Assembly: GCA_045537235.1 (NCBI GenBank)
Contig: JAZSPB010000156.1
Span: forward strand, 92,638-156,637
Reading direction: 5' to 3'
Length of the DNA stretch: 64,000 bases
Source: Eubacteriales bacterium
Lineage (GTDB): Bacteria > Bacillota > Clostridia > Oscillospirales > CAG-272
Both the position numbers and the translations under genes were made by a program. Positions 6,833 through 62,176 of the stretch are shown one piece after another. The notes below the pieces were generated by a model. It did no database searches. It was not told the DNA's origin and saw only the letters and a program-made list of their open reading frames with translations. Every line of letters begins with the position of its first letter. The stretch's first letter is position 1.

Positions 6833-7762
6833 TTAAAGGACACTCTGCAAGAACTGTTGCAATCTGGGACTCTTGGGGGCGGAGAAAATCTCCTCGGGCG
6901 TTCCCACTTCCTCGATTTCGCCGTCAGCCATAAATATGATCTTATCAGCGACCTCTCTTGCAAATCCCATCTCGTGGGTCACGGCGACCATGGTCATTCC
7001 CTCATCAGCAAGTTGCTTCATGAGATCAAGAACCTCTCCCACCATTTCGGGGTCAAGTGCCGAAGTAGGCTCATCGAAAAGCATGACCTTGGGATCCATG
7101 GCAAGAGCGCGAATGATCGCCACTCTCTGCTTTTGACCGCCCGAGAGCCTGGAAGGATACTCATCGCGTTTTTCGGCAAGACCGATACGCTCAAGAAGCT
7201 CCATGCCTCTCTTTTCCGCTTCCTCCTGGGTCTTAAGCTTCAACTGCACAGGAGCCAAAGTCAAATTCTGCATTACCGTCAAATTGTTAAACAGATTGAA
7301 GTGCTGGAATACCATTCCCATTTTTTGTCGGGCAATATTGATATCAATTCCATTTTCGGTCTGGATCAACTTCAGTGCGTTCTTGTAGTCACCGCCCTCA
7401 TTTTTTTTCAAAAGTTCTTCCTGTATGACCTTATTAGTCAAATACCGTTTCAGCTCATCCTCGGAATATTTTGAAAATGCCGTGTCTTCTCCATAGGCTT
7501 TAAGAAGCTTTTGAAAGGTTCGGCTACTCTCAATTACTTCCGAATGAAGATACGGATCTGCGGGAGTCAGCAAGTTCTCTCCTACCCAAACCTCACCTCG
7601 GGTAGGCTCCTCCAAAAGGTTGATGCACCGCAAAAGCGTACTTTTTCCACCGCCGGATGGGCCGATAATAACCACTTGCTCGCCGGCTTCGATGTCGCAA
7701 GATACTCCGTGCAAAACCTTTATCTTCCCAAAATTTTTATATACATTTTTAACGCTTATCAC
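6833..7762 (-). CDS. Amino-acid ABC transporter ATP-binding protein (GlnQ/HisP-like) with a large internal insertion
   Basis: Walker [11 protein letters not shown]-loop MVFQHFNLF, signature LSGGQKQR and Walker [12 protein letters not shown]. About 75 extra residues lie between Walker A and the Q-loop. Confidence 0.9.
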
Positions 7763-8444
7763 TTGCTCTCATCCTCCTCTCAATAAGCTTTATAATTCCC
7801 GTGACAATCAGTATGAGTACGAGGTAAACAAGTGCAAGCACGATATACGGGATAATATACTCGTAAGTGCTGTTTGCAATATTTTGGAATGCCTTTGTGA
7901 TATCCACGATCGTGATAAAACTTACAACCGAGGTCTCTTTTAAAAGAGCAATAAACTCATTTCCCAATGTAGGAACAACATTTTTGATAGCCTGCGGAAG
8001 AACGATCTTTATCATGGTTTTTCCATAAGACAGACCAAGGGCGCGACCCGCTTCTGTTTGACCAATATCCACCGAAAGAATTCCACCTCTCATGATCTCG
8101 GAAACATAAGCACCCGAATTAAGTCCGAAAGCCAAGATAGCCTCGGTCAACAAGGGAATGTTAATGCCAAGCATGGGAAACAAAACATAGTGGATCAGCA
8201 ACAACTGAACAACCATTGGTGTGCCGCGAAAAATAGCAACGTATGTACTGGTTGCTCCGGATAAAACCTTAATCAGCTTATTGGTTCTCGGAAGAATCTT
8301 ACAAGTTGCCAAAAGACATCCGACGACCATTCCGATTAAAAGACCAAACACCGCTATTAAAGCGGTGTTCTTTAGTCCGGTTAAAACATTACGATAACCT
8401 TCGAGTTCAATAAGCTGTCTGTAAAAACTCTGCCAAGCCTCCAT
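7749..8444 (-). CDS. Amino-acid ABC transporter permease (His/Glu/Gln/Arg/opine family)
   Basis: 231 aa, multi-pass membrane protein with an EAA-like loop ([23 protein letters not shown]). It overlaps the ATPase gene. Confidence 0.9.
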
Positions 8445-9458: not shown

Positions 9459-12290
9459 TCACTTATTTAACAACCGAGAAAGGTATTGACCCGTATAGGA
9501 TTTCTCCACCGCAGCAATCTCTTCCGGGGTTCCAACAGCCACTACCGTTCCGCCTTTATCTCCGCCATCCGGACCAAGGTCAATAATATAGTCTGCCGTC
9601 TTTATCACATCCAAATTGTGTTCGATGACCAAAATGGTGTTCCCTGCATCGCAAAACTGCTGCAAGACATTAAGAAGGTTAGCCACATCCGCAGTGTGGA
9701 GTCCCGTGGTCGGCTCATCAAGAATATAGATGGTCTTTCCCGTACTGCGCTTGGAAAGCTCAGTTGCCAATTTGACTCGCTGTGCCTCTCCGCCCGAAAG
9801 GGTTGTGGAAGACTGTCCGATCTTAATATATCCCAATCCCACATCATAGAGGGTCTGCAATCGACGGCGAATCTTTGGAAATCCGTCAAAGAACGTAACG
9901 CCCTCTTCTACCGTCATCTCAAGAATCTCGTAAATATTCTTTCCTTTATACTTGACTTCGAGCGTATCGGCATTATAGCGTCTTCCCTTGCAAACGTCGC
10001 ACTTGACATAAACATCGGGCAAAAAGTGCATCTCGATGCATTTCACACCGTCCCCTTCGCAAGCCTCACAACGTCCGCCTTTTATATTGAAAGAAAAACG
10101 TCCCGATCTATATCCCCTTGCCTTGGCATCGGGTGTCTGAGCAAAAAGCTCGCGAATGTCGGTAAACAGCCCCGTGTAGGTGGCAGGATTGGAACGCGGC
10201 GTTCTTCCGATGGGGCTTTGGTCGATGGCGATCACCTTGTCCAAGTGCTCCATTCCCTCTATGCGGTCATACTTGCCAACCGTAGCGGCATATGCGCCAT
10301 TGAGTTCGGATGCCAACTTGGGATAAATGATACCATTAACCAGCGACGATTTTCCCGATCCGGAAACACCGGTTACGCAAACAAAACATCCCAAGGGAAT
10401 CTTGACATCAATTTGCTTCAAATTGTTTTGTGCGGCACCAAAAACCTCGAGGAACTTGCCGTTCCCTTTTCTTCTCTCTTTGGGAATTTCTATCTTTTTA
10501 CGGCCCGACAAATAAGCTCCTGTTTCGGAAGTCTCTATTTTTTTGATCTCTTCGGGTGACCCGCAAGCTACCACAGTTCCACCGTGAATTCCCGCGCCGG
10601 GACCGATATCCACGATATAATCGGCAGACTCCATTGTCTCTTCGTCATGTTCCACGACTATGACCGTATTGCCCACATCGCGCAACCGTTTTAAAGTAGC
10701 AATCAGTTTAGAGTTGTCTCGCTGATGCAAACCAATACTCGGCTCATCGAGAATATACATGACACCGACAAGTGCCGAACCGATTTGCGTGGCAAGACGA
10801 ATTCGTTGAAGCTCGCCGCCGGAAAGTGTTCCCGCTTTGCGAGACAAGGTCAAATAATCCAACCCTACATTGATTAAGAAGCCCAAGCGTGCGCGAATTT
10901 CTTTGAATATATCTCTGGCAATCATCTGTTCGGTTTCGGTCAGCTTCAAATTGTCAAAGAAAGCCAATGCTTCGGTGACCGAAAGACAACAAAGCTCGTG
11001 GATGTTAAGTCCTCCGACCGTAACAGATGCAGAATTCGCCGAAAGACGGCTTCCATGACATTTTGGACAAACGGTCTGATCAATAAACTGCTCATAATAG
11101 TCGGAATTCATACCTTGCGCCATTCGCTGCTCAATCATTTTGATAAGACCTTCAAATTTGATCTTCTGCTTATATTCCTCATTTCCGAACCAGCGAGAGA
11201 CCGAATACAACTCATTTCCCGTGCCGTAAAGAAGCGCATTCATGGCATTTTCAGAGAAATCCTTGAGCGGCATATCCAATGTAAATCCACACCGCTCTCC
11301 CACCGCGGCAAACAGCGGACCGTTCCAACTTTCCTCCTCCAAGGACTTAAAACCATTGACAGCGATGGCTCCTTCATGGAGGGAAAGCTTTTTGTTGGGG
11401 ATCATCTTCTCCACCGATATCTTGTTCAGCTCACCGATGCCAAGGCAGAAATCACAGGCTCCGGCAGGATTGTTAAAGGAAAACATTCTCGGCTCCAGTT
11501 CGCCAAAGGAAATTCCGTGCTCTTCGCAGGCATAAGATTGGGAAAACTCCAGCTCATAGGCTTCCATCTCACGCGGCATGACCACCACGGTCAAGTGACC
11601 GTCGGCAATATGGAGCGCATTTTCAATCGAATCCGAAAGACGGGAACGAATATCGACACGCATAACCAAACGATCTACAATGATCTCAATCTTATGTTTT
11701 AAATTTTTATCCAGCTTAATGCTTTCTGAAAGATCGTATACACTGCCGTCCACACGAACACGGGAATAACCGCTTTTCTTGGCATCCGAAAAGACCTTCT
11801 CATGCATTCCCTTTTTATCCTTAACCACGGGAGCCAGCACCATAAAACGCTCCCCGTCGGGCAACTCCAAAATGCGATCAATGATCTGATCGGTGCTTTG
11901 CTGGCGAATCTCCTTATGACAAACGGGACAGTGCGGAATACCAATGCGCGCATAAAGCAAACGCAGGTAGTCGTAGATCTCTGTTACGGTTCCCACAGTG
12001 GACCGCGGATTTTTAGAGGTCGTCTTTTGATCAATGGAGATTGCCGGTGACAGTCCCTCGATCAGATCCACGTCGGGCTTATCCATCTGCCCCAAAAACT
12101 GACGGGCATAGGAGGACAAAGATTCCACAAACCGTCTATGCCCTTCGGCATAAAGTGTATCAAATGCCAGTGAGGATTTACCCGACCCCGACAGGCCGGT
12201 CAAAACCACCAGTTTATCCCTTGGAATGGTTACATCTATATTCTTTAAATTATTAACTCTTGCGCCCTTTATTGTAATTTCACTTGCCAT
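9459..12290 (-). CDS. uvrA: Excinuclease ABC subunit A
   Basis: 943 aa with tandem ABC ATPase modules (GLSGSGKSS, GVSGSGKSS, LSGGE signatures) and zinc-finger cysteines. Confidence 0.98.
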   Translation of the reverse strand: MASEITIKGARVNNLKNIDVTIPRDKLVVLTGLSGSGKSSLAFDTLYAEGHRRFVESLSSYARQFLGQMDKPDVDLIEGLSPAISIDQKTTSKNPRSTVGTVTEIYDYLRLLYARIGIPHCPVCHKEIRQQSTDQIIDRILELPDGERFMVLAPVVKDKKGMHEKVFSDAKKSGYSRVRVDGSVYDLSESIKLDKNLKHKIEIIVDRLVMRVDIRSRLSDSIENALHIADGHLTVVVMPREMEAYELEFSQSYACEEHGISFGELEPRMFSFNNPAGACDFCLGIGELNKISVEKMIPNKKLSLHEGAIAVNGFKSLEEESWNGPLFAAVGERCGFTLDMPLKDFSENAMNALLYGTGNELYSVSRWFGNEEYKQKIKFEGLIKMIEQRMAQGMNSDYYEQFIDQTVCPKCHGSRLSANSASVTVGGLNIHELCCLSVTEALAFFDNLKLTETEQMIARDIFKEIRARLGFLINVGLDYLTLSRKAGTLSGGELQRIRLATQIGSALVGVMYILDEPSIGLHQRDNSKLIATLKRLRDVGNTVIVVEHDEETMESADYIVDIGPGAGIHGGTVVACGSPEEIKKIETSETGAYLSGRKKIEIPKERRKGNGKFLEVFGAAQNNLKQIDVKIPLGCFVCVTGVSGSGKSSLVNGIIYPKLASELNGAYAATVGKYDRIEGMEHLDKVIAIDQSPIGRTPRSNPATYTGLFTDIRELFAQTPDAKARGYRSGRFSFNIKGGRCEACEGDGVKCIEMHFLPDVYVKCDVCKGRRYNADTLEVKYKGKNIYEILEMTVEEGVTFFDGFPKIRRRLQTLYDVGLGYIKIGQSSTTLSGGEAQRVKLATELSKRSTGKTIYILDEPTTGLHTADVANLLNVLQQFCDAGNTILVIEHNLDVIKTADYIIDLGPDGGDKGGTVVAVGTPEEIAAVEKSYTGQYLSRLLNK

Positions 12291-15461: not shown

Positions 15462-15992
15462 ATGTTACTGTTTTTAAAAAATCGCTCTTATGAGATTGTC
15501 AGACTTTTTTTAAATCAAATCGCCATTTCTATTTTCGGCTTTTCGCTTAACTTGGCCACAAAAACCAATCACACAGGTCTCAGCGTCGGTACCAGTGTGT
15601 TCTCCATCTTGTTTTATCTCTTCATCACATATGTTATGATGTGGGAGCTGGGCGCCAAGGACAGCCACAAGATTGAAAGACATGACAAAGGTCAATCTCG
15701 TGCTTCCGGTTTTTTCATGGGACTTGTTGCAAGTTCACTGAATTTTATTCTCGCCATTCTTATCATGCTTGGCACTTTGATCCCCGGCATGGGGAATGTG
15801 GGCGGCGTATCGCAGCTTATTGCCCTCCTCACCGAAGGAATGTATTCCGGGCTTCTCTCTCTTAAGATCGGAGGAAGCGCCCTCTCCAGTTTGTGGTTCA
15901 TGTATTTCCTTCTCCCGCTCCCCCGTATCGGCGTCACTACACTGGCTTACTTCGCCGGCAGCAAAAATTTCAAGCTTTTTGGAAAAAAATAA
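15462..15992 (+). CDS. Hypothetical integral membrane protein
   Basis: 176 aa with four to five hydrophobic helices. It has its own promoter and a downstream hairpin. I recognise no family. Confidence 0.6.
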   Translation: MLLFLKNRSYEIVRLFLNQIAISIFGFSLNLATKTNHTGLSVGTSVFSILFYLFITYVMMWELGAKDSHKIERHDKGQSRASGFFMGLVASSLNFILAILIMLGTLIPGMGNVGGVSQLIALLTEGMYSGLLSLKIGGSALSSLWFMYFLLPLPRIGVTTLAYFAGSKNFKLFGKK

Positions 15993-16110: not shown

Positions 16111-16968
16111 TTAGACCTCTTCAAATTTTGAAACCAGAAAACGCCCTACACTTTCAGCATAAGCCAAAGCATTCGGAACAAGCTCTTGGGGCAATTTTTT
16201 GATGAACCAAAACACCTCGAAAGTCAGATCACCACGGTACCGAACATCTTTTAAGGCGGAAATTATGGCATCCCAATCCAATTTTCCCATAAACGGAACA
16301 AGGTGACGGTCGGCAAGATAATCGGTATCTTGAATATGCAAAGATTGCAGAAGCCCATCTTTCATGCCCAAGATAAAGTCTTCCGGAGACATACCCGTAA
16401 TCGCCGCATGACCAACATCCAAACAGGCAGTAAACCAAGGAGAATCCAATTTCTTAATAAAATTACACAACAATTTGGGTGTGCCCAACCGTCCGAAAAA
16501 CGAATTGCACTTTGTGTTATGCGTAAACAAATTTTCCACTGCTATTTGGATTCCAAACCTTTCGCAATAAGGCTCAAAGCTTTTATAGAAACAAAAATTG
16601 TATTCCTCGAAATCCTCGTTGGCAGGTACCTCCAAGGAGTGGATCACAATATTTTCCGCACCGAGTATGGCGGCAGCTTCTATTGCACGAACCAATGCCC
16701 GATAATTAGACTCGGACACATCCATTTTTTCTCCGTAACGAAAATCAAGCGGAGCATGTGCTTGATTGCAAGCAAGACCGTTTTCATCCAAGCATTTACG
16801 AATCCTTGCCGCATATTCCGCATAGCCGTCTCCTAAAACCGGGGCATCTTTCGGAAACCAATAAAACGAATAATCAACAGCATCAAATCCCGCATCTTTG
16901 ATCAAGCGAAGGGCCTCTTCGTCTCCGAATTTTTCTCTTACAGCATAGGTTTCAATCGACAATTTCAT
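16111..16968 (-). CDS. Sugar phosphate isomerase/epimerase (xylose-isomerase-like TIM barrel)
   Basis: 285 aa with AP-endonuclease-2/TIM-barrel family features (AVENL..., LDVGHA...). It lies 31 nt downstream of the HTH-GH51 gene. Confidence 0.75.
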   Translation of the reverse strand: MKLSIETYAVREKFGDEEALRLIKDAGFDAVDYSFYWFPKDAPVLGDGYAEYAARIRKCLDENGLACNQAHAPLDFRYGEKMDVSESNYRALVRAIEAAAILGAENIVIHSLEVPANEDFEEYNFCFYKSFEPYCERFGIQIAVENLFTHNTKCNSFFGRLGTPKLLCNFIKKLDSPWFTACLDVGHAAITGMSPEDFILGMKDGLLQSLHIQDTDYLADRHLVPFMGKLDWDAIISALKDVRYRGDLTFEVFWFIKKLPQELVPNALAYAESVGRFLVSKFEEV

Positions 16969-16999: not shown

Positions 17000-19096
17000 T
17001 TAATACTGTATCAGTGCCATACTGTGTGGCGGCAATTCAAATTCGCACCGCCCTCCGTCTTTGTTAACGGCAATGTCCAGAATTGAAAAATCGGAATGAG
17101 GAAGCAAACAGTCTCCTACATATATCTTAACATTTACCGCTTTTCCCGGATCCTCAAACGAGACTGTCTGCGATTCATCGAATGAAGAATTGACAACCGT
17201 TACTGTGACCTCTCCGTTTTTCTCTGTAGCAACCACACGGTCGGTAGCCAAATGCACTTTGCCGTTCACATGATGCTTCATCAAGGCAAGTGCTTGACCG
17301 GTTGCTGTCAGTGAAACACCTTGCGGCGTAACCTTAATGGCACTTTCATTTACCGCTTCAAACTGGCAGGCAAGTTCAATTCCGCAATTCTGTGCCTCTT
17401 CGATGATCATATGCATCATAAGCGCTGTATAAATACCGTCGATCACACACGAGGGGCGGAACCAAGCATACCAAACATTCCACTCATCAAACGAGATCTT
17501 TACACACCCGTCGACCATTTCATGAATTTCTCGAACATTACTGCGTGCACGTTCCACCGCGCCCATACATCTTTCATATTCTGCCCTCAATTTGGTCATA
17601 TCGGCATATTGAGGTTCTTTATTATAAAAATGAAATGATATGAGAGAGGAAATATCCGAAAGAGGTCTTGCCGAATGGTCTACCCACTCCCGATTCGGAT
17701 ACGGACCCGAAGAACAGAAGGTTAGATTGGGGCAGACCTCAAACATCTTTTTTCCATTCTCTCTTGCAAGACGAGCATATCCGTATGCACTGTTGTCCCC
17801 CTCCATATGCCCATATCCAAACTCATTTCCCAACGACCAAAGCATGACATTGTAAGGCTCCGGATTTCCTCTTTGCGCCCGAAGTTTTCCGTACACGGTG
17901 GTTTCATCACCGTTGCAATATTCAACCCACGCCGCGTTTTCTGCCGGGGTATTCCAAGCAAGATTGATGGTAAGATACGGCTCCGCGCCGATCTCGCGGC
18001 AAAGGGCGATAAAATCATCGGTGTTGATCTCATGAAAATCATATCCTAAAGTATGGGGCTGAGTTTCAAGATTCATGTAGGACTCAAAGGGGGCACGTTC
18101 ATCAACGGGTAACATGCCGTCAAACCAGTTGTATTCTCCGGCGAAATTTCCTCCCGGCCAACGCAGCAGTTTGATGCCGATCTCTTTCATAGCCTCGATC
18201 ACATCCGGACGCATTCCTCTGAAATTGTTAACATTCATCAAAGAAACGCAACCAACCGTCACACATCCTTTTTTCTCAAATGTAATTCGAAAATCGGCCT
18301 CAGAATCGCTGTATTTTGGAGTAAGTACTACCGTTTGACGCTCCCACGCATCTCCCGCGTTCAACCGCAAACATTTTTGAGCATACACATTTTTTCCGCC
18401 TCGCGACGTTATGCTTACCGTAAGCTCCATGTCAACAAAAGCTTGCAAAACCAAGGCGACCTCATAGGACTCGCCGGCAGAAAAAGCTATATCATGCTGA
18501 CCGATCCCGCTCAACTCATCTCGAAAATAATTCGATACGCGTTGGGAATTACACTCAACGTTTCTATGCATATGATAATGCTCTTCGTCATGGTGGGTAT
18601 AGGGTTCCGCAAACGAGCAATAAGTCTTTTCACCGATCACATACCATTCCTTTGCCACCCCCTCCATGGCAGAAGGTTTTCCTACAAATTTTCGATTGCG
18701 AAGCATTTGTGCGGAAAGACCTCCGCACATACAAGAACGCGTATGCTCAAGATTGTTTCCAAAAAGATATGGCGAAACCATTCCCAAGTCGCTCCCTTGT
18801 CCAAACTCGATTCGACAATGCTTTTCAAAAGGACGAATACGCCCCGCATCATTTTTTTGTATGGAGTTGCTGCTCAAAGCCATATTCTCTGCTTTGCCGT
18901 CCATCAGTTGGGCAATACTCACCTTCAATTCAGTGGCGATTCGGTTCAGTAGAGAAACATCAGGGCAACTCAATCCCCTCTCCCACTTAGAAACTGCCTT
19001 TCCCGTAACACCCAGGATCTTTCCAAAATCATCCTGTGTATATCCAAGTGAACTTCTTCGTGTCGCGATAAACTTGCCGATCTTTCTCATGTCCAT
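17000..19096 (-). CDS. XRE-family HTH domain fused to a GH51-like alpha-L-arabinofuranosidase-type glycoside hydrolase
   Basis: N-terminus MDMRKIGKFIATRRSSLGYTQDDFGKILGVTGKAVSKWERGLSCPDVSLLNRIATELKVSIAQL is an HTH_3/XRE domain. The rest carries GH51 hallmarks RWPGGNFAGEYNW, WSLGNEFGYG (acid/base Glu) and ISFDEWNVWY (nucleophile Glu). No signal peptide. I moved the start to the ATG at 19096, preceded by GGGAGG. Confidence 0.8.
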   Translation of the reverse strand: MDMRKIGKFIATRRSSLGYTQDDFGKILGVTGKAVSKWERGLSCPDVSLLNRIATELKVSIAQLMDGKAENMALSSNSIQKNDAGRIRPFEKHCRIEFGQGSDLGMVSPYLFGNNLEHTRSCMCGGLSAQMLRNRKFVGKPSAMEGVAKEWYVIGEKTYCSFAEPYTHHDEEHYHMHRNVECNSQRVSNYFRDELSGIGQHDIAFSAGESYEVALVLQAFVDMELTVSITSRGGKNVYAQKCLRLNAGDAWERQTVVLTPKYSDSEADFRITFEKKGCVTVGCVSLMNVNNFRGMRPDVIEAMKEIGIKLLRWPGGNFAGEYNWFDGMLPVDERAPFESYMNLETQPHTLGYDFHEINTDDFIALCREIGAEPYLTINLAWNTPAENAAWVEYCNGDETTVYGKLRAQRGNPEPYNVMLWSLGNEFGYGHMEGDNSAYGYARLARENGKKMFEVCPNLTFCSSGPYPNREWVDHSARPLSDISSLISFHFYNKEPQYADMTKLRAEYERCMGAVERARSNVREIHEMVDGCVKISFDEWNVWYAWFRPSCVIDGIYTALMMHMIIEEAQNCGIELACQFEAVNESAIKVTPQGVSLTATGQALALMKHHVNGKVHLATDRVVATEKNGEVTVTVVNSSFDESQTVSFEDPGKAVNVKIYVGDCLLPHSDFSILDIAVNKDGGRCEFELPPHSMALIQY

Positions 19097-19153
19097 AGCT
19101 TCGTTTCCTCCCAAGCATATATTTTGTGCAACCGCACATATGATCTTGATTTC

Positions 19154-19182
19154 ATTATAATATGCTTTTTAAGGTTTGTCAA
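19154..19182 (-). promoter_or_regulatory. Consensus sigma-A promoter of the HTH-GH51 gene
   Basis: Minus strand: TTGACA (19182-19177), 17 nt, TATAAT (19159-19154). Confidence 0.7.
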
Positions 19183-19261
19183 TCGACTGTCGGTTTCCTT
19201 GATTAGAGCGTGGCACGGGGTGGCACACATTTTTGTCCCCGTGCAAGTTTTAAAAGTGGCG

Positions 19262-19296
19262 AAAACCTCCTATGGCTTTGGTGCCAAGGGAGGTTT
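19262..19296 (-). terminator. Candidate terminator after yebC
   Basis: Minus strand: AAACCTCC, 18-nt loop, GGAGGTTT, then T. The U-tail is short. Confidence 0.4.
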
Positions 19297-19319
19297 ACGG
19301 TCAAATTCTATTTTAATGA

Positions 19320-46397: not shown

Positions 46398-49300
46398 TTA
46401 TTTCAAAACAACCGTTTTGGTATCGATCACCTTTCCGGACAGATCCGTTAAGGTCACCGTAACCTCATCTCCACTCTTGGCGGTGATATCGGTTTCAATG
46501 ATAAAGTTTCCGGCAGTCTCAAAGGTGGTTGTATATTCCTTTGTGACACCGTTAGCTTTGACGGTAACCTTGTGAGAAGTCTCGTTGTGTCCGAGTTCCC
46601 AAACTTCCACACATATCTTGCCGTCCACCGAGATATCTGCGCCGTGAATGTTGGCATCGGACAAGGTGGCAAGGAACGGGAAGGCAGGCTGGCTAATGCT
46701 GTTCTCAAGGTTGCCTCCCAAGGTATCAGGTGCCCCTGACACCGCATAAGAGTTGACATAAGAATACTGAACTGCAACGGGATTCTTGATCGAGGTGGCG
46801 GTCACGACAACGGTATCTCCGACGATCGTCGCAGTGGCATCCACAAAGGTCTTGCCATTCGCACTGATCTTGAAGCCTGTCAGTTTGGTGTCGCCGTCCT
46901 TGATCTTAAGACCGTCGCCAATGTGTGAGAAGTGAAGGATGACTCGGTCTCCGTCTACCTCCATATACTCGTACATGGGACCGGTATATTCCGTCGTTCC
47001 TTCATAGTAGGTCTTGCCGTAAACAGTGGCGAGGATGGTCGCCGCCATACGGTTACCGACGGGCACCTTGGTTCCGGGATGAATGGTTCCACCCGTATCC
47101 TTGTCGTCAAAGGTTCCCTCGTATGCCGTAGAGATGACCTCCACATTGTTAAGACGTTTGGCGGTGTCGATCTGCACCTGGCGAATCTCGAAGAAGTTTC
47201 TTCCGCTACCCGCCGCGTACGGTGCCAACTGAACCAACATAATGGGAAGATTCTCATCTCTGAAATCCTCTCTCCATTGCTCGATCAAATCGTAAAGAAT
47301 GTAGTTGTACTGTTGAGCGATTCTGGCATTGGGTTGAGACTCACCTTGGTACCACATCACACCGGCAACGGCATAGTTGGCAAGGGGACCTTGCATTGCG
47401 TTGTACAGACCGGTGGGAGCAAATCTTCTTCCTGTGCTTCCCTCGGTACCGTTGATAAGGGTACCTGCCGCCTTGGTGGTTTTATAAATCTTTCCGAGAC
47501 TCCAGTAAAAATCGTAATCCTGCCACAGCGTTCTTCCCTCACAGCCCCAGTTATTTCTGACAGAGGGGAGAATGGAAGGATCGTTGTAGATAAATTCTCT
47601 GTCCGAAGCAAACAGCCGCTCATAGTTAAGCCATGCTTGCGCGGAGCTACCGCCCTCGTAACATTCGATAATTGCGACCGGCACTCCCAGCTCTGCTTGA
47701 ATCTGATAAGCAGAAATATAGGCAATTGCGGAAACACCGGAAACATTGGAAGCCGTGACCTGTTTCCATGCGCCGTTGGTAACGTCCTTTTGAAGCTCAT
47801 AGCTTGCCGTCACACCTATCTTAAAGCTTCTGACATCATAGTTTTTGGCACCCGAAACGATATCCGCTGTGTCAAAAACACTGCTCATTTTAAGCTCCAT
47901 ATTGGACTGACCGCTACAATACCAAACCTCACCGATGCCCACATTCTTGAAGGTCTTTCCCGCCACTCCGTTCTTGACCAAGAGCGTCTTGCCGGATCCG
48001 CCTTCCATTTCGGGAAGCTCTAAATAAAATTCACCGTTGGCATCTACCACTGAACTTGCGGTATATTGGTCGATCTCCGCCGTTATGGTATCACCGGGGG
48101 TTCCGCCCCAGCCCCAAATCGGCACTTTTTTATTTCTCTGCAAAACCATATCGTCCGCAAAAATGGACGGAAGTATTACTCCAATATTGGTATTCAGCAT
48201 AGCAAACTCCACCGTGAAATCATCAATATAAACTGTCTTGGGGAAATTGGTCGAAGAAGTTCCAAAGTTGATGAAGGGTCTTACGGGATAGTGTTCCTTG
48301 ATACTTGCATCATCAAAGACCAACTCGGTTTTTGATAGAAAATCCTTGGTGATATCCATCTCATATTCCACAAAAGTCCATTCACCCTCGTAAATATCAT
48401 AAGAAGTGTAGGCCAACTGTGTTGTCTTCTTATCTCCCATCAATCCGATAGACGAACTCACGGGCTTTGCGGGATCTTTAAAGCCCTCCATCAAAACATA
48501 AGCCGAGATCTTGACAGTCTGACCGATATAAGGTGTCAGATCCTTTGGCATCAGATTGTTGAGCTTGACTCTGGCACCGAAATCTCCGTTGGCGTTGGGT
48601 TGGAAATTATAAAGCGCCATTGCTTTGTCTCCCGAATGTGACTGCCAATTAAGCGCACCGACCTGAAGTAAGGAATTGGCGTAATTTCCGCCCATTTTAT
48701 ACTCATTGGCCGCATCGGTCAGCTCCGCATAAGTGGAGGTCTTATACTGAGTAAAAGAAGCATCGGCATTCTCAAAATCCTCGGTTTTATATACCGTATA
48801 CTCGGGCACATAGGCATCCTTGTGAAGAGAGGCCTTTACATCATCCACGTAGAAGGTACTGCAAAGATCGGATGCAGGTGCATCGACAGCCGCCGCTACG
48901 TTTTGGTCGATCTTGACCGTAATCAAGCCGGCAGCGGTATTTTCAGCGGTAACCTTATAGAACAAGGTGAGCTGATTCCATTCATTGGCTCGCAGCTCGA
49001 ACTTGTGCGACTCAGCCGCTGTATCGTCGGAGCCTTCTTTGGAAACCGACATTCTGAACGCAGCATTCTCACCGATCGGCATAACGTATGCGGTGATCTT
49101 ATAAGTCTTTCCGACATTTCTGGGGGTCATATACACCTCCAGAACATCCAAAACACCTACACCGCCATCAGCACTTGAAGATTCAACCTTGATGGATTGA
49201 TCTTTTGTACGAATATAAGCCTTGTCAGTATTGATGCTGACCTTGGCAGCGGGATTTCCCGCCACATAAAAGGGGTCGGGCTCCTTGTCGTCGCCGCCGG

Positions 49301-49475
49301 GAGCCGCTGTTTCAAATCCTTGTTCGGACTCCTCCGGATCGCTCTCACTCTCGCTCTCATTCGACTCGGATTCGGTGACCTCATGGGTATCCGTCTCGGA
49401 CTCCGTTTCTCCGCCGCAAGCGACAAAACTCAATAAAAGCGTGAATATCAAAAGAATGGATAATAGCTTTTTCAT
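46398..49475 (-). CDS. Large lipoprotein with N-terminal CBM-like beta-sandwich regions and a sialate O-acetylesterase-like (SASA/DUF303) domain
   Basis: Lipobox LLLSFVAC and an acidic linker. The SASA-type nucleophile motif GEVWYCSGQSNME and downstream GVMWYQGES are present. The C-terminal region is Ig-like. Confidence 0.75.
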   Translation of the reverse strand: MKKLLSILLIFTLLLSFVACGGETESETDTHEVTESESNESESESDPEESEQGFETAAPGGDDKEPDPFYVAGNPAAKVSINTDKAYIRTKDQSIKVESSSADGGVGVLDVLEVYMTPRNVGKTYKITAYVMPIGENAAFRMSVSKEGSDDTAAESHKFELRANEWNQLTLFYKVTAENTAAGLITVKIDQNVAAAVDAPASDLCSTFYVDDVKASLHKDAYVPEYTVYKTEDFENADASFTQYKTSTYAELTDAANEYKMGGNYANSLLQVGALNWQSHSGDKAMALYNFQPNANGDFGARVKLNNLMPKDLTPYIGQTVKISAYVLMEGFKDPAKPVSSSIGLMGDKKTTQLAYTSYDIYEGEWTFVEYEMDITKDFLSKTELVFDDASIKEHYPVRPFINFGTSSTNFPKTVYIDDFTVEFAMLNTNIGVILPSIFADDMVLQRNKKVPIWGWGGTPGDTITAEIDQYTASSVVDANGEFYLELPEMEGGSGKTLLVKNGVAGKTFKNVGIGEVWYCSGQSNMELKMSSVFDTADIVSGAKNYDVRSFKIGVTASYELQKDVTNGAWKQVTASNVSGVSAIAYISAYQIQAELGVPVAIIECYEGGSSAQAWLNYERLFASDREFIYNDPSILPSVRNNWGCEGRTLWQDYDFYWSLGKIYKTTKAAGTLINGTEGSTGRRFAPTGLYNAMQGPLANYAVAGVMWYQGESQPNARIAQQYNYILYDLIEQWREDFRDENLPIMLVQLAPYAAGSGRNFFEIRQVQIDTAKRLNNVEVISTAYEGTFDDKDTGGTIHPGTKVPVGNRMAATILATVYGKTYYEGTTEYTGPMYEYMEVDGDRVILHFSHIGDGLKIKDGDTKLTGFKISANGKTFVDATATIVGDTVVVTATSIKNPVAVQYSYVNSYAVSGAPDTLGGNLENSISQPAFPFLATLSDANIHGADISVDGKICVEVWELGHNETSHKVTVKANGVTKEYTTTFETAGNFIIETDITAKSGDEVTVTLTDLSGKVIDTKTVVLK

Positions 49476-53154: not shown

Positions 53155-53940
53155 TTAGTTCATGAAATGAGCCTTGATGTAGTCGCAGCTGGTCTTGATG
53201 CTTTCCATTGCATCACCGGTTGCAAAGTTGGTGTCCTGCTCGACAACAAAGTCTTTGACGCCGATCTTCTCACCCAGAGGAATGATATCCTCAAAGTTGA
53301 TGTTACCGTTACCGATCTCGGTGATGTAAGGCGAATTGCCCTTCTCGCCGCCGCAAGCGCCCATATCCTTCAAGTGAAGAATATCTACGCGACCGGCCAA
53401 ACGCTCCATCATCTTTCTGACATCATATCCGCCGTGCTGTACCCAGTAGGTATCCAAAACGAAGCTGACATTGTCCTTATCAAAGCCCTCAATGAGGTAA
53501 TCCATCACGGTCTTGCCTTCGACTTTCTTGAACTCGAAGCTGTGATTGTGATAAGTAAACTTCATGCCGACTTTAGCCAGCTTTGCGGCGATATCATTGA
53601 CCTGATCAATAAAAGCAAGAATGGCCTCCTTGGAGGTACGAGCCTCACCGGGCATACTTCCAATACCCATATTGGTTGTTCCGAGAATCTTGTGAACCTC
53701 AATGGCCTCGTCCAAATTCTCAACGATCAGTTTCCAGTTATAGTGCGTACCGCAGATAGCAACACCTGCATTATCAGCGCACTCCTTGAAGTACTTTGCA
53801 CTCTCAATATCGGTAATCAAGCCTGCGGTCTGAACCGAATCGTAACCTGCGGCCTTGATCTTAAGGAACGCATCCTTGAGTCCTTCGGGGGTTCCGGTAA
53901 AATCACGAACCGTATAGATCTGAAGTCCTACGCTTTTCAT
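53155..53940 (-). CDS. Sugar phosphate isomerase/epimerase (xylose-isomerase-like TIM barrel)
   Basis: 261 aa with TIM-barrel family motifs (GLQIYTVRD, YHNHSFEF, HLKD). Confidence 0.78.
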   Translation of the reverse strand: MKSVGLQIYTVRDFTGTPEGLKDAFLKIKAAGYDSVQTAGLITDIESAKYFKECADNAGVAICGTHYNWKLIVENLDEAIEVHKILGTTNMGIGSMPGEARTSKEAILAFIDQVNDIAAKLAKVGMKFTYHNHSFEFKKVEGKTVMDYLIEGFDKDNVSFVLDTYWVQHGGYDVRKMMERLAGRVDILHLKDMGACGGEKGNSPYITEIGNGNINFEDIIPLGEKIGVKDFVVEQDTNFATGDAMESIKTSCDYIKAHFMN

Positions 53941-58637: not shown

Positions 58638-61600
58638 TTAATCAAAACATTTGAGCGTCGGAGCCTGACCGTTTACGATGTTCCAAATCTCGGGGTCAAA
58701 ATACAAGGTGTTGAGAAGGAAATCTTTACTCAAAAGGACGGAAGTTGCCTTGGCTTCGCCTGCGGTACAGGTGGGGGTTACAGTGGTGTTGTTCTGTGCC
58801 ACATTTGCTTGATTGGAGTAATAGCAAGAAAGCACTGTTCCTTCTGTTTTTCCAAGGAACTTACCATAACCGACAGCAAGAGAAAAATTAACATCGCCCA
58901 AAGAAAAACATTTGGTGACAACCGCGCCGGCCTCATTATTGCCTACAAAACCACCAAGATAACCGCTGTCAGTTACAGCATTCAGAATGTTGACGGAAGT
59001 ATATACATTCTTTATAATTGCCTTATCTCCACTATTTAATCCAACGGCACCACCGCTGCAATTATATACACCATAGTCGCTATTTATTTGAGTGTTTGTT
59101 CCCGTAGAAAAGCTATCAAGAAGTGTACCGCGGTTTTCTCCAATCAATCCACCACTCCAATAGTTCTTTCCGGCATTTCCAACATATTTTACATCAAACG
59201 AAATATCCGCCATACATTCTCTAACTATAGCGGTTTCATCCGCTGTATTTTTTCCTACAATACCTCCAAGTACTAACTCCAAATGAGACCAACCAGCGGT
59301 ACCAACTGAAGACGATTTTGTTCCAACCAAAATGAACTCTGCTTCGCTCTTTTCAACAACATTTGTATTTAATCCTGCAATTCCACCAAAATAGGCATAA
59401 CAATAAATACTATATTTGTAATAACTACTCGTATATAGATAAATAGCCGAATCTACAGCGACTTCAAGGTGGCATTCGGAAATAACTCCATTATTGGTAC
59501 CAGCGACACCGCCCAAAATTGCTTGCCAATTCACTGCCCCATAGTGTTCAGAGTTATACGTATAGTCTATCTTGGCTGAAAGCACATCACAATTAATAAT
59601 ATTTCCTTCGTTAATACCGGCAATTACTCCCGTATTAGTGGAACTTACAGAATTGTTGGTTGTCGTTAATAAAACATTCTCGAATCCAACATTCTTAATC
59701 GTACCACTATTCACTCTAAAGAACCCAACATCAATTGCCGTGGTGGAAAGGGCGGATATAGCAAAGTTGTAAATCTTAAAACCCTTACCATCAAACGTAC
59801 CCGTAAACTTATCAATCGGTGTCCAGATATCGCCCTTGTAGTTAATATCGTTCCCCAGCACATAATTGCCCGACGGATTGGTTGCGATCGCGGCAAGCTC
59901 TTCGGCGGTCTTGATCACGATCATCTCGCCGCCCAACATCTTTGCGTAGATCGTGGTACTGGCATTCAGTGCATAGTCAAATTTATATTCTTTGGTAAAG
60001 GCACTGTCAAGATACCATCCCAAGAAAGCATAGCCACTCTTTACGGGATCGGCGGGTTTCGTGGGGATCTCGCCCTTATAAACCCCTTCGCTTGCGATCT
60101 GGGTTCCGCCGGCGGTGTTATAGGTGACAGTATACATCTGCTTAACATACTGCGCCTTTACCGTCATGTCAGCCTTCACCGAGCTGAATGACTTATCCCA
60201 TCCGCTGAAAGGGATATCGTTTACATAAGAAGGCATAGAGGGCGCCTTGGCAGACGTTCCGTAGTCAACACTCTGCACACTCACAACCTCGCCGTAATAA
60301 TCCAAGAAGGTCACCTTTACTTTGTTCGGTGTCCATCTTGCCACAAGCTTCATGTCGCCCATCACGGGATCGGTGGTAGTAAAGATACCGTCAACTACCG
60401 TCTTTCCCGTATACCAACCGTCAAAGGTATATCCCGTCTTGGTCGGCACGGTGAGGGCAACTGTTTGTCCGTGATTCACCTTGACACTGGACTGGTAACC
60501 TGCGGCGGCTGTACCTCCATTCAGGTCAAAGGTTACGGTATGCTTCAACAGACCGCCCGAAATAAATTCCTCTATCCATTGTTCTTCGGTTCCTGTATAG
60601 GAAGGATTCTTTTCAATATAAATTTCATAAGCGGACTTTCCGGGGGTACCTTGTGCACCTGCGGCACCTGTGGCTCCCGTATCACCCTTATCTCCCTTAT
60701 CTCCCTTGGCTCCATCCTCACCGTCCTTGCCGGTTGCTTGAACGTCAAGAGATGTCCAATTTTTGCCGCCATCGTAGGAAACTTCCCACATATTGGTGGT
60801 CTTATTGATCTTGATCTGAGGGGTAATACCATCGGTTCCGTCTTTTCCGTCTTTTCCGTCTTCGCCACGGTCTCCCTTATCGCCCTTATCGCCCTTATCG
60901 CCCTTGGCGCCGACAAGAGAGGTCAGCCACTGGGACTCGCTGCCCTTGTAGCCATTCTCCACGGCAAGCTCGTAGGCAGACTTTCCGTCCTCGCCATCCT
61001 CGCCGTCCTCACCGTCATTTCCGTTCTTACCGTTGGTTCCGACCAAAGACGCAAGCCATTCCTGCACATCGCCCTTGTAGCCATTCTCAACAGCAAGCTC
61101 GTAAGCCGACTTACCTGCCGCACCGTCTGTTCCGTTAACGCCTGCCGTTCCAACAAGCGAGGCAAGCCACTCTTCTTCGGTACCCTCAAAGCCAAGCTCA
61201 ACAGCAAGCGCATATGCAGACTGTCCGTCTTTTCCGTCGGCTCCCTTTTCTCCAACCAAGGAGGTCAGCCAAGACCGAATATCGCCTTCATAACCGTTTT
61301 CCACGGCGATCTCATAAGCGGATTTACCCGCCGCACCGACAAGCGATGCCAGCCAATCGGTCTCGGAGCCTTCGTAGCCTTTTTCCACGGCAAGCTCATA
61401 GGCAGAAGTACCGCCAGCGCCTGTTGCACCCGTTTCACCGACCAAAGAAGCCAGCCATTCGGTCATGGTTCCGCGGTAGCCGTTTTCCAAGGCCAACTGA
61501 TAGGCGGATTTTCCGTCGGCACCCACATCCCCCTTGTCACCTTTATCACCCTTATCGCCCTTCGCAGCGGCTGTTCCATCACGACCTACAAGTGACGCAA

Positions 61601-62132
61601 GCCACTCGGTCAAGGTTCCTTCAAAGCCGTTGTCGCAAGCAAGCTCATAGGCAGACTTTCCGTCCGCACCGTCTTTACCGTTGACGCCATCCGTGCCGAC
61701 AAGAGAATCCAACCACTCCGAAAGGGTGCCTCCAAAGCCTGTCTCCACGGCAAGCTCATAGGCAGATTTTCCGTCTGTTCCGTTGATTCCCGCGACTCCC
61801 ACAAGAGAGGAAAGCCACTCGCTCTCGGTACCCTTGTAGCCCTTTTCCACCGCAAGCGCGTATGCGGACTGACCGTCTGCACCGTTTTGTCCTGCGGCAC
61901 CTGTTTCGCCCACAAGAGAGGCGAGCCACTCTTCTACGGTGCCGTCATATCCTTTTTCCACGGCAAGCTCATAGGCCGACTTTCCGTCTGCACCCGTAGC
62001 GCCTTGCTCTCCCGTAGGACCTTGTTCGCCCTTCGGTCCTTGCTTTGCGCAGGAAGCAAACATACAAAGCACCATCATTGCAACGAGCATTATGGACACG
62101 ATTCTCACAATGCTACTCTGTCTTTTTGTCAT
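58638..62132 (-). CDS. Giant surface lipoprotein with collagen-like G-X-Y tracts, 11 tail-fibre-like SAYELAVE modules, three Listeria-Bacteroides (Flg_new) repeats and a GLUG-motif region
   Basis: Lipobox MFASC. GPKGEQGPTGEQGATG and GDKGDKGDKGD tracts are present, with repeated SAYELAVE.GY.G...EWL.SLVG modules. Flg_new-type repeats include TVTFDLNGG...GYTFDGWY. GLUG-like motifs include GGIAGLN, GGLIGEN and GGFVGNN. I moved the start to the ATG at 62132 (MTKRQSS), 8 nt after AAGGAGG. The ORF-track start at 62171 has no RBS. Confidence 0.85.
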   Translation of the reverse strand: MTKRQSSIVRIVSIMLVAMMVLCMFASCAKQGPKGEQGPTGEQGATGADGKSAYELAVEKGYDGTVEEWLASLVGETGAAGQNGADGQSAYALAVEKGYKGTESEWLSSLVGVAGINGTDGKSAYELAVETGFGGTLSEWLDSLVGTDGVNGKDGADGKSAYELACDNGFEGTLTEWLASLVGRDGTAAAKGDKGDKGDKGDVGADGKSAYQLALENGYRGTMTEWLASLVGETGATGAGGTSAYELAVEKGYEGSETDWLASLVGAAGKSAYEIAVENGYEGDIRSWLTSLVGEKGADGKDGQSAYALAVELGFEGTEEEWLASLVGTAGVNGTDGAAGKSAYELAVENGYKGDVQEWLASLVGTNGKNGNDGEDGEDGEDGKSAYELAVENGYKGSESQWLTSLVGAKGDKGDKGDKGDRGEDGKDGKDGTDGITPQIKINKTTNMWEVSYDGGKNWTSLDVQATGKDGEDGAKGDKGDKGDTGATGAAGAQGTPGKSAYEIYIEKNPSYTGTEEQWIEEFISGGLLKHTVTFDLNGGTAAAGYQSSVKVNHGQTVALTVPTKTGYTFDGWYTGKTVVDGIFTTTDPVMGDMKLVARWTPNKVKVTFLDYYGEVVSVQSVDYGTSAKAPSMPSYVNDIPFSGWDKSFSSVKADMTVKAQYVKQMYTVTYNTAGGTQIASEGVYKGEIPTKPADPVKSGYAFLGWYLDSAFTKEYKFDYALNASTTIYAKMLGGEMIVIKTAEELAAIATNPSGNYVLGNDINYKGDIWTPIDKFTGTFDGKGFKIYNFAISALSTTAIDVGFFRVNSGTIKNVGFENVLLTTTNNSVSSTNTGVIAGINEGNIINCDVLSAKIDYTYNSEHYGAVNWQAILGGVAGTNNGVISECHLEVAVDSAIYLYTSSYYKYSIYCYAYFGGIAGLNTNVVEKSEAEFILVGTKSSSVGTAGWSHLELVLGGIVGKNTADETAIVRECMADISFDVKYVGNAGKNYWSGGLIGENRGTLLDSFSTGTNTQINSDYGVYNCSGGAVGLNSGDKAIIKNVYTSVNILNAVTDSGYLGGFVGNNEAGAVVTKCFSLGDVNFSLAVGYGKFLGKTEGTVLSCYYSNQANVAQNNTTVTPTCTAGEAKATSVLLSKDFLLNTLYFDPEIWNIVNGQAPTLKCFD
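60912..61979 (-). repeat. In-frame tandem coding repeats (10 consecutive modules of about 28-50 aa)
   Basis: The modules are repeated at protein level: SAYELAVEKGYDGTVEEWLASLVG, SAYALAVEKGYKGTESEWLSSLVG, SAYELAVETGFGGTLSEWLDSLVG and so on. They are separated by G-X-Y spacers of variable length. An eleventh, degenerate module lies at about 60552-60640. Confidence 0.85.
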
Positions 62133-62176
62133 CGTAATGACCTCCTTTTTGAATTTCATAGAGGATGTCACTCCAG

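Follow-up and report, generated by a model that had tools for sequence, protein, structure and literature searches.

A gene in the window analysed here (the whole 64-kb stretch of contig JAZSPB010000156.1 from a Eubacteriales bacterium) encodes a 698-residue protein in which an XRE-type helix-turn-helix (HTH) domain is fused to a glycoside hydrolase family 51 (GH51)-type enzyme. In gut and rumen Clostridia, this HTH-GH51 fusion is a real, conserved gene. Comparison with its relatives suggests that the protein is a cytoplasmic bifunctional enzyme and transcription factor that acts as an autoregulated trigger enzyme for arabinofuranoside-containing oligosaccharides, a reading to which we assign a probability of roughly 0.6. 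As in trigger enzymes, a DNA-binding domain and an enzyme domain are joined in one polypeptide. The core proposal, an autoregulating, DNA-binding enzyme of the GH51 type, is favoured on balance by these comparisons; that sugar binding is coupled to DNA binding has an even chance at best. A preliminary description of the gene had suggested a trigger enzyme or one-component sugar sensor, and this suggestion gains strong comparative support, as a putative palindromic operator travels with HTH-bearing genes only.

Alignment of upstream regions revealed a 21-nt imperfect palindrome 5' of the fused genes, with the consensus GTAAACCAACAGTCGGTTGAC and the core AACCGAC-N-GTCGGTT. The motif lies 72-130 nt 5' of the start codon, at 72-102 nt in the regions first aligned, and extends at its 3' end into the -35 hexamer. 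It is present at 22 of the 23 fused genes examined, whose genomic contexts are otherwise unrelated, and is missing upstream of 31 of 32 unfused homologues. When scored with a leave-one-out position weight matrix (PWM), the upstream regions of 19 fused genes reached at least 13.2 bits (median 21.4); those of the 32 unfused homologues scored at most 12.6 bits (median 2.5), the maximum coming from a single locus, L023. Three additional fused loci carry sites of 25.1, 27.1 and 31.1 bits located 78-82 nt upstream. In the window, the candidate operator GGAAACCGACAGTCGATTGAC lies at 19178..19198 on the minus strand (core AACCGAC-A-GTCGATT, 19181-19195), scores 25.7 bits (22.5 bits leave-one-out) and is centred at about -41 from the predicted transcription start. 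Relatives at 71-81% identity conserve the operator block and the -10 element, while the flanking intergenic DNA has diverged. A PWM scan of the window for further sites found a next-best distinct site of only 13.6 bits, a score that shuffled sequence also reaches (this ranking ignores the same palindrome read on the opposite strand). Together, these data provide strong comparative evidence that the conserved palindrome is an autoregulatory operator for the HTH.

The fusion gene (17000..19096, minus strand, from the list of open reading frames (ORFs) and the sequence; stop codon 17000-17002) is a single, uninterrupted ORF, and all of its parts lie on the minus strand. The XRE/HTH_3 domain that the preliminary description had placed at the N-terminus was recovered there: Pfam HTH_3 (PF01381) matches residues 13-63 with a score of 38.5 bits (cutoff 23), and an AlphaFold2 (AF2) model folds residues 1-66 (18899..19096) into five helices (3-16, 21-28, 32-39, 47-56 and 61-66) with predicted local distance difference test (pLDDT) values of 79-97. 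The HTH part also gave weak matches to P22 C2 and SinR in the PDB, and to the BzdR family in NCBIfam (PRK08154, E=0.053). A linker follows at residues 67-105 (18782..18898), with pLDDT below 50 at residues 71-79; across the fused homologues it is always present and in frame and varies in sequence. Against 14 homologues, identity averages 0.69 over the HTH, 0.71 over the catalytic barrel and 0.29 over the linker, which places the HTH under the same constraint as the barrel. No signal peptide or transmembrane segment was detected in the fusion protein, where the maximum 19-residue Kyte-Doolittle hydropathy is 1.45; that stretch falls within a beta-sandwich, and residues 1-128 reach 0.89. Because a hydrophobic segment is absent, the protein is expected to be cytoplasmic, as had been proposed from the lack of a signal peptide. 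A RodZ-like membrane-anchored topology (i.e., HTH, transmembrane helix and ectodomain) was excluded, since a hydrophobic segment is absent and a transmembrane helix after the HTH was not found.

The enzyme half comprises three parts. Residues 106-290 (18227..18781) hold, by alignment and AF2, an N-terminal strand with Glu117 (NLEHTR), the subfamily motif SAQMLRNRKFVGKP and an inserted beta-sandwich resembling a carbohydrate-binding module (CBM). They are followed by a (beta/alpha)8 catalytic barrel (residues 291-610, 17267..18226) and a C-terminal beta-sandwich (residues 611-698, 17003..17266; AF2 strands 613-697 at pLDDT 89-97, with a Foldseek alignment to GH51 structures). Searching the PDB with phmmer aligned residues 289-614 to the Thermotoga Araf51 (3s2c/3ug3) at E=2e-49, with further GH51 matches to 1pz3 (E=7.5e-29) and 2c7f (E=6.5e-28). 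Both catalytic-glutamate motifs are aligned in the Thermotoga match, WSLGNEF falling on the acid/base motif (GNEM) and SFDEWNVWY on the nucleophile motif (DEWNVWY). The fungal three-domain enzyme MgGH51 (6zps) aligns already from residue 110 in the sequence search. The CBM-like insertion noted previously corresponds to a beta-sandwich at about residues 150-290 (AF2 strands 152-288) that matches the N-terminal domain of MgGH51. The other motifs quoted in the preliminary description were all located as well: GYTQDDFGKILGVTGKAVSKWERG at residues 18-41, LFGNNLEHTR at 111-120, RWPGGNFAGEYNW at 312-324, WSLGNEF at 420-426 and ISFDEWNVWY at 534-543.

Structure prediction placed the same region in GH51. 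A first AF2 model built from 15 close homologues (pLDDT 75, active-site loops below 50) was replaced by one built from a 40-sequence alignment that included unfused enzymes, which reached a pLDDT of 92.1 and a predicted TM-score of 0.86, with disorder only in linker residues 71-79. Its layout is an HTH at residues 3-66, a beta-sandwich at about 150-290, a barrel at about 295-610 and a C-terminal beta-sandwich at 613-697. The top 46 Foldseek matches in the PDB were all GH51 enzymes (TMt 0.64-0.72), followed by GH79; the best was MgGH51, with 696 aligned columns and a TMt of 0.71. The intact GH51 barrel expected earlier is thus borne out by prediction, and profile, sequence and fold searches agree in assigning the C-terminal ~590 residues to GH51 rather than to a non-glycosidase fold.

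As a ruler for the active site, we used the canonical AbfA encoded in locus L014, mapped onto the numbering of GsAbfA. This revealed that E117, R312, N317 and N424 correspond to GsAbfA E29, R69, N74 and N174, and that E425 (acid/base; codon 17822-17824), H489, Y491 and E538 (nucleophile; codon 17483-17485) correspond to E175, H244, Y246 and E294, both codons being read directly from the sequence. The functional roles of E29, R69, N74, N174, H244, Y246 and Q351 in GsAbfA are those given in the structural literature on that enzyme. A possible substitution of the catalytic glutamates was set aside by proper alignment, in which E425 and E538 are conserved along with the other six residues. All eight catalytic and -1-subsite residues, which are those of retaining exo-alpha-L-arabinofuranosidases, are kept in the aligned fused and unfused members, with the exception of the truncated P0129 and the divergent outlier P0239; the Gln351 position alone varies.

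These data suggest the following mechanism. Many phyla carry, as a standalone enzyme, a distinct long GH51 subfamily in which a CBM-like beta-sandwich precedes the (beta/alpha)8 barrel and a second beta-sandwich forms the C-terminus; one Clostridia lineage would have gained an XRE-type HTH through a flexible linker. Classical GH51 enzymes are oligomers, and the HTH would probably be dimerised by an oligomeric enzyme body. The HTH dimer would sit on the AACCGAC-N-GTCGGTT palindrome abutting the -35 of its own promoter and would control its own expression together with that of co-transcribed genes: here an isomerase/epimerase-like gene, and elsewhere GH43 with an ABC transporter, GH127, GH36 or a canonical GH51. 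Substrate occupancy or turnover in the GH51 active site would alter DNA binding, so that expression tracks substrate supply, following the logic of NadR and PutA. Repression by occlusion of the -35 would be favoured in the window because the promoter there is already consensus. By this mechanism, the enzyme would probably respond to its substrate by adjusting both its own production and the expression of adjacent plant-fibre genes. That the glycosidase active site itself is the sensor of the transcription factor (i.e., that the enzyme rests on the promoter until oligosaccharide arrives, and expression stops, or starts, after hydrolysis) is a more tentative proposal, with somewhat less than even odds.

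Several observations weigh against this reading. An operator centred at about -41 would also fit a class-II or lambda cI/PRM-type activator, and a decision between repressor and activator based on operator geometry was dropped because both fit, the promoter being consensus here and the -35 poor in several orthologues (L013, L014, L016 and L026). Because the -35 hexamer occupies the 3' third of the motif, the promoter itself accounts for part of the conservation. The neighbourhoods of the fused genes, viewed across 10 kb on either side of each gene, are not conserved, and the window holds one autoregulatory site only, with no sugar transporter or carbohydrate-active enzyme (CAZyme) operon nearby. 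On the enzyme side, Glu580 occupies the position of GsAbfA Gln351, where family members have E, Q or A, and the substrate specificity may be different from that of classical arabinofuranosidases. The NCBIfam ArfA model (NF051901) scored 139.5 bits against a cutoff of 625, and Alpha-L-AF_C (PF06964) was undetected in the fusion protein by a Pfam scan. From the sub-cutoff ArfA score and the undetected Alpha-L-AF_C domain, these profile comparisons place the enzyme as a GH51-fold member of a separate, uncharacterised subfamily, with AbfA/ArfA orthology excluded. Pfam ASD1_dom (PF22848) scored 20.8 bits against a cutoff of 22.2.

We considered whether the GH51 body might be a sensor-only pseudoenzyme, that is, a ligand-binding or oligomerisation module with little or no turnover. 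Enzyme folds serve as sensors in BzdR (PMC3602430) and in RsgI6, whose GH10 domain has very low activity (PMC4711584), and NrtR and BtAraR provide further precedents (PMC2330246, PMC4666351). The unconserved Gln351-equivalent position would fit such a role, as would locus L014, where the fused gene is followed, with an overlap of 4 nt, by a canonical AbfA GH51 gene that could make a second active enzyme redundant. However, enzyme-derived sensors usually lose catalytic residues, whereas all eight catalytic and -1-subsite residues are conserved in fused members down to ~44% identity, just as they are in the unfused enzymes. The barrel identity of 0.71 is as high as anywhere in the protein, and several loci have no other arabinofuranosidase nearby. 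We thus consider a pseudoenzyme unlikely. The conserved active site makes the enzyme half look catalytically functional, with imported oligosaccharides that carry arabinofuranosyl decorations as the most likely substrates to be bound and cleaved.

A second alternative is constitutive negative autoregulation, in which the HTH steadies the enzyme level and sugar has no influence on DNA binding. That the fusion gene's own promoter is the sole site in the window is consistent with this, as are the monocistronic arrangement and housekeeping context of the close relatives and the lack of a visible allosteric path between domains joined by a disordered, variable linker. Gene neighbourhoods argue otherwise. 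One conserved neighbourhood or polysaccharide utilization locus was rejected, since partners vary (GH127, GH43, GH36, GH2, GH3, GH10, GH29, GFO_IDH_MocA, ABC transporters, or none). The fused gene is nonetheless repeatedly the first gene of short plant-glycan operons, being followed by GH43, SBP_bac_1 and two ABC permease genes in L106, by a Melibiase-family (GH36) gene in L105, by lipoprotein, GH127 and lipoprotein genes in L040, and by a lipoprotein gene in L026, where a GH43 gene is nearby. Substrate-independent control would be wasteful at the head of such sugar-uptake and CAZyme operons (L106, L040, L105). GH127 is a beta-L-arabinofuranosidase family; a GH127 gene adjoins the fused gene in L004, and in L014 a second, perfect operator copy overlaps the -35 of the next gene, which encodes a secreted protein of more than 1300 residues with GH127 and Laminin_G_3 domains. 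The same operator before a separate GH127 gene is difficult to reconcile with a circuit that only steadies the enzyme. Furthermore, the HTH-enzyme fusions NadR, PutA and BirA are ligand-responsive (PMC2330246, PMC5397151). Control that ignores the sugar is therefore, in our estimation, a shade less probable still than a pseudoenzyme, and we continue to favour the substrate-responsive trigger enzyme.

It is also conceivable that the upstream motif serves the promoter or a different regulator, the HTH then having another target or a non-regulatory role. The 3' end of the motif is the -35 hexamer, and one unfused homologue, L023, retains a similar motif at the same position. This homologue, from a Congzhengia sp. 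metagenome-assembled genome (MAG), is a 632-residue enzyme (10001-11899) that starts inside the linker region; its operator-like palindrome TCAAGCTAAAAGTCGCTTGAC (L023:9922-9942, 12.6 bits) lies 79 nt upstream and abuts a TTGACA -35. In a neighbour-joining tree (no bootstrap), L023 branches within the fused clade, as would be expected had the HTH been lost recently; it may be such a loss, or it may be controlled in trans by a separate regulator. Against a generic promoter element stands the distribution of the motif, found with 22 of 23 fused genes in unrelated contexts and missing from 31 of 32 unfused ones. Its conserved 5' half (AAACC) lies outside the promoter hexamers and is palindromic with the 3' half. 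The motif is also absent upstream of fused members with a divergent recognition helix, namely P0081/L105 (CAETVDKWEKG), L030 and L051, as expected if the HTH reads the motif. An origin of the motif in something other than the HTH is thus very improbable.

The L030 and L051 proteins merit description in their own right. Both L030:5544-7700 (Lachnospiraceae MAG) and L051:9986-12170 (Christensenella sp. UBA7102) encode fused HTH-GH51-type proteins at ~40% identity with intact catalytic motifs. Their recognition helices differ (TNKAVSRWETG and TNKAVSKWECG), and the consensus operator is absent upstream. This type, represented by P0129, groups with unfused enzymes in the neighbour-joining tree, and it may be an independent fusion event or have a diverged operator.

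To determine how widespread the fusion is, homologues were searched for among 5.8 billion clustered proteins, which returned 2160 matches. Nearly all of the best 120, which were inspected, are ~700 residues long, match both HTH_3 and the GH51 catalytic domain, and share 53-81% identity. These fused homologues are taxonomically Clostridia (Ruminococcaceae/Oscillospiraceae and Acutalibacter). More than 100 are full-length and come from independent Clostridia assemblies deposited at NCBI, ENA, JGI and Logan, including one from a cultured Acutalibacter strain. An assembly or frameshift artefact joining two genes is therefore vanishingly improbable: no point was found in its favour, the ORF is uninterrupted, the linker is always present and in frame, and the fusion recurs in all of these full-length homologues. 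The architecture is indeed unusual, as had been remarked, yet public metagenomes already contain it in abundance, filed under generic names, the NCBI label being just 'helix-turn-helix domain-containing protein'.

The same enzyme also occurs without the HTH. In a library clustered at 50% identity, about five full-length clusters are fused, and most other best matches are enzymes of ~600-660 residues; the unfused homologues begin at about query residue 105. A scan of one genome per species found fused forms in Oscillospiraceae, Acutalibacter, Neglectibacter, some Lachnospiraceae and Christensenella, and enzyme-only forms (27-52% identity) in Bacteroidales, Prevotella, other Clostridia, Victivallis, Planctomycetes, Chloroflexi and Alphaproteobacteria. 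A signal peptide is absent in most unfused members and present in a few. The subfamily motif SAQ(M/L)LRNRKF marks both fused and unfused enzymes, and most fused proteins fall into one clade of the tree, the Lachnospiraceae type being placed elsewhere. Because the same enzyme without an HTH is widespread in other phyla, these comparisons indicate that the HTH is a later addition to a pre-existing enzyme subfamily bearing this motif.

The expression signals of the fusion gene in the window lie on the minus strand. Translation starts at the ATG at 19096 (protein start MDMRKIG). A TTG at 19114, six codons upstream, is a possible, less likely start; the ATG is preferred because a ribosome-binding site read from the sequence, GGGAGG (19107..19112), lies 10 nt before it. 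The consensus promoter reported before the gene was confirmed by a promoter scan as a sigma-70-type TTGACA-17-TATAAT element at 19154..19182 that matches the consensus at 12 of 12 positions, and its -10 and -35 are kept in close relatives. Further upstream, a hairpin (19260..19299; an inverted repeat with 17-nt arms, then a T-run on the minus strand) closes the YebC-family gene and insulates the fusion-gene promoter from it. Between the -10 and the ribosome-binding site, in the 5' untranslated region, is a perfect 5+5 palindrome, TGTGC-GGTT-GCACA (i.e., TGTGCGGTTGCACA; 19126-19139). It was dropped as an operator, having diverged even in relatives at 71-81% identity, a pattern that suggests it is probably without function.

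Downstream, the preliminary description had noted a sugar-phosphate isomerase/epimerase gene 31 nt from the fusion gene. Its position was confirmed, and it encodes a xylose-isomerase-like TIM-barrel protein of 285 residues (16111..16968, minus strand; Pfam AP_endonuc_2, E=1.5e-30). No terminator was predicted in the 31-nt gap after the fusion stop codon, and the gene is probably co-transcribed with the fusion gene. However, the partner is not conserved: it was found only in the window and in L102 (81% identical) and is absent from the syntenic loci L099 (78%) and L101 (71%). We thus rejected it as a conserved partner; it is a lineage-specific one. A 176-residue multi-pass membrane protein with no Pfam match lies at 15462-15992 (plus strand), and in L099 and L101 the fusion gene is followed, at the syntenic position and in convergent orientation, by a 179-residue protein that likewise lacks a Pfam match. 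Elsewhere the window has a housekeeping character (uvrAB, xerC-like, yebC, argS, recN, murB and comEC-like genes). Three other minus-strand genes, none preceded by the operator motif, encode a 1025-residue protein with a SASA carbohydrate-esterase domain (46398-49475), a second AP_endonuc_2 TIM-barrel paralogue (53155-53940) and a 1177-residue surface protein with Listeria-Bacteroides repeats, collagen repeats and GLUG motifs (58638-62171).

Other loci provided additional observations. Fused genes of the Acutalibacter/Neglectibacter subclade are always flanked by an AraC-type regulator and by a near-identical GFO_IDH_MocA oxidoreductase (L008:2765-3922, L010:8185-9342 and L002:6569-7726), an association specific to this subclade that may indicate oxidative sugar metabolism. 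In the Acutalibacter-type locus L002, another operator-like site, CTCAACCAATGGTAGATTGCA (7753-7773, 19 bits; identical at L003:375-395), lies on the opposite strand 174 nt upstream of the main one, and two sites could permit looping or cooperative binding. In the Clostridia MAG GCA_054266115.1, an XRE HTH of the same kind (SDKAVSKWENGQGYPD) is joined directly to a PfkB-family sugar kinase (L001:15830-17047, 405 residues). This gene lies 6 kb downstream of that genome's own HTH-GH51 gene, has Lyx_isomer-like and F_bP_aldolase genes after it and lacks the GH51 operator motif in its upstream region. Its presence suggests that XRE-enzyme fusions regulating sugar metabolism form a wider class in Oscillospiraceae.

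Regulon discovery by scanning metagenome contigs for the exact motif was abandoned because its 13 matches are, by a rough estimate, about the chance expectation; only L090 and L093 precede fused orthologues. On four contigs (L089, L091 and L097 from JGI sample Ga0302347, and L095 from Ga0256410), the perfect palindrome TAAACCGACAGTCGGTTGACG heads a near-identical sequence of ~120 nt (GCGTTTGCGTGTG…GTTGCCGCAAAATGCC…AAGCTTGACGCTGCTGCACGGCC). No ORF of at least 60 residues starts within ~220 nt downstream of TAAACCGACAGTCGGTTGACG on these contigs, and the repeat could be a regulatory or mobile element of an unrelated organism.

A full-text literature search found no published XRE- or HTH-glycosidase fusion, most subscription journals being outside its coverage. 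To our knowledge, a regulator with a complete, apparently active glycosidase as its sensor is undescribed, and the family is abundant in public data yet unnamed and unstudied. The protein would be a one-component regulator with a glycoside hydrolase as its fused enzyme. If so, enzyme, sensor, DNA-binding domain and operator would form one portable cassette for varied plant-glycan operons in gut and rumen Clostridia, where the control of plant-fibre breakdown is poorly understood relative to Bacteroides. With one protein and one 21-bp site, it offers a compact system for testing the coupling of catalysis to DNA binding and, for work in anaerobes, a potential self-contained biosensor or inducible promoter that responds to arabinose-decorated oligosaccharides. 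The analysis also flags a GH51 subfamily that occurs widely in Bacteroidales, Clostridia, Planctomycetes and Chloroflexi and whose specificity is uncharacterised. Even a plain autoregulated arabinofuranosidase would be a clean natural case, parallel to NadR, of an enzyme gaining a DNA-binding domain.

Comparison with known systems places these features in context. The classical GH51 enzymes GsAbfA (1pz3), TmAraf51 (3ug3) and CtAraf51 (2c7f) share the barrel, the C-terminal beta-sandwich, the GNE/DEW motifs and the -1-subsite residues other than Gln351 with the fusion, and MgGH51 additionally shares the N-terminal beta-sandwich. The fusion differs from these structures in its low identity (20-28% to the bacterial enzymes, 14% to MgGH51), its own motif SAQMLRNRKF and the presence of Glu or Gln at the Gln351 position; in the PDB search, none of the GH51 structures matched the HTH part of the query. 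BzdR of Azoarcus likewise combines an XRE-type HTH, a linker and an enzyme-derived (shikimate-kinase-like) effector domain (PMC3602430); that domain is a benzoyl-CoA-binding module and no working enzyme, whereas the fusion retains every catalytic residue. In the anti-sigma factor RsgI6 of the plant-fibre-degrading Clostridium thermocellum, a glycoside hydrolase fold (GH10) serves as a carbohydrate sensor (PMC4711584), as is proposed here. The fusion is predicted to be soluble and cytoplasmic with its own DNA-binding domain, whereas RsgI6 sits in the membrane, detects polysaccharide outside the cell and signals via a sigma factor, its GH10 module having very low activity. PutA, BirA and RbkR each unite a metabolic enzyme and a transcription factor in one polypeptide that autoregulates its own operon (PMC5397151), as we propose for the fusion; their DNA-binding folds (ribbon-helix-helix, winged helix) and chemistry are different, and none is a glycosidase. 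The closest functional analogue would be NadR of Enterobacteria, in which an HTH is joined to nicotinamide mononucleotide adenylyltransferase and ribosylnicotinamide kinase domains that are active as enzymes (PMC2330246). NadR has been characterised experimentally, whereas the fusion is known from sequence, and its nucleotide-metabolism enzymes, its operator (TGTTTA-N6-TAAACA) and its regulon are unrelated. As in our proposal, however, NadR carries an N-terminal HTH on enzyme domains and binds a palindromic operator as a dimer, its DNA binding is controlled by the enzyme's metabolite, and, as for the fusion, the HTH is limited to a compact clade while the enzyme alone is widespread (PMC2330246).

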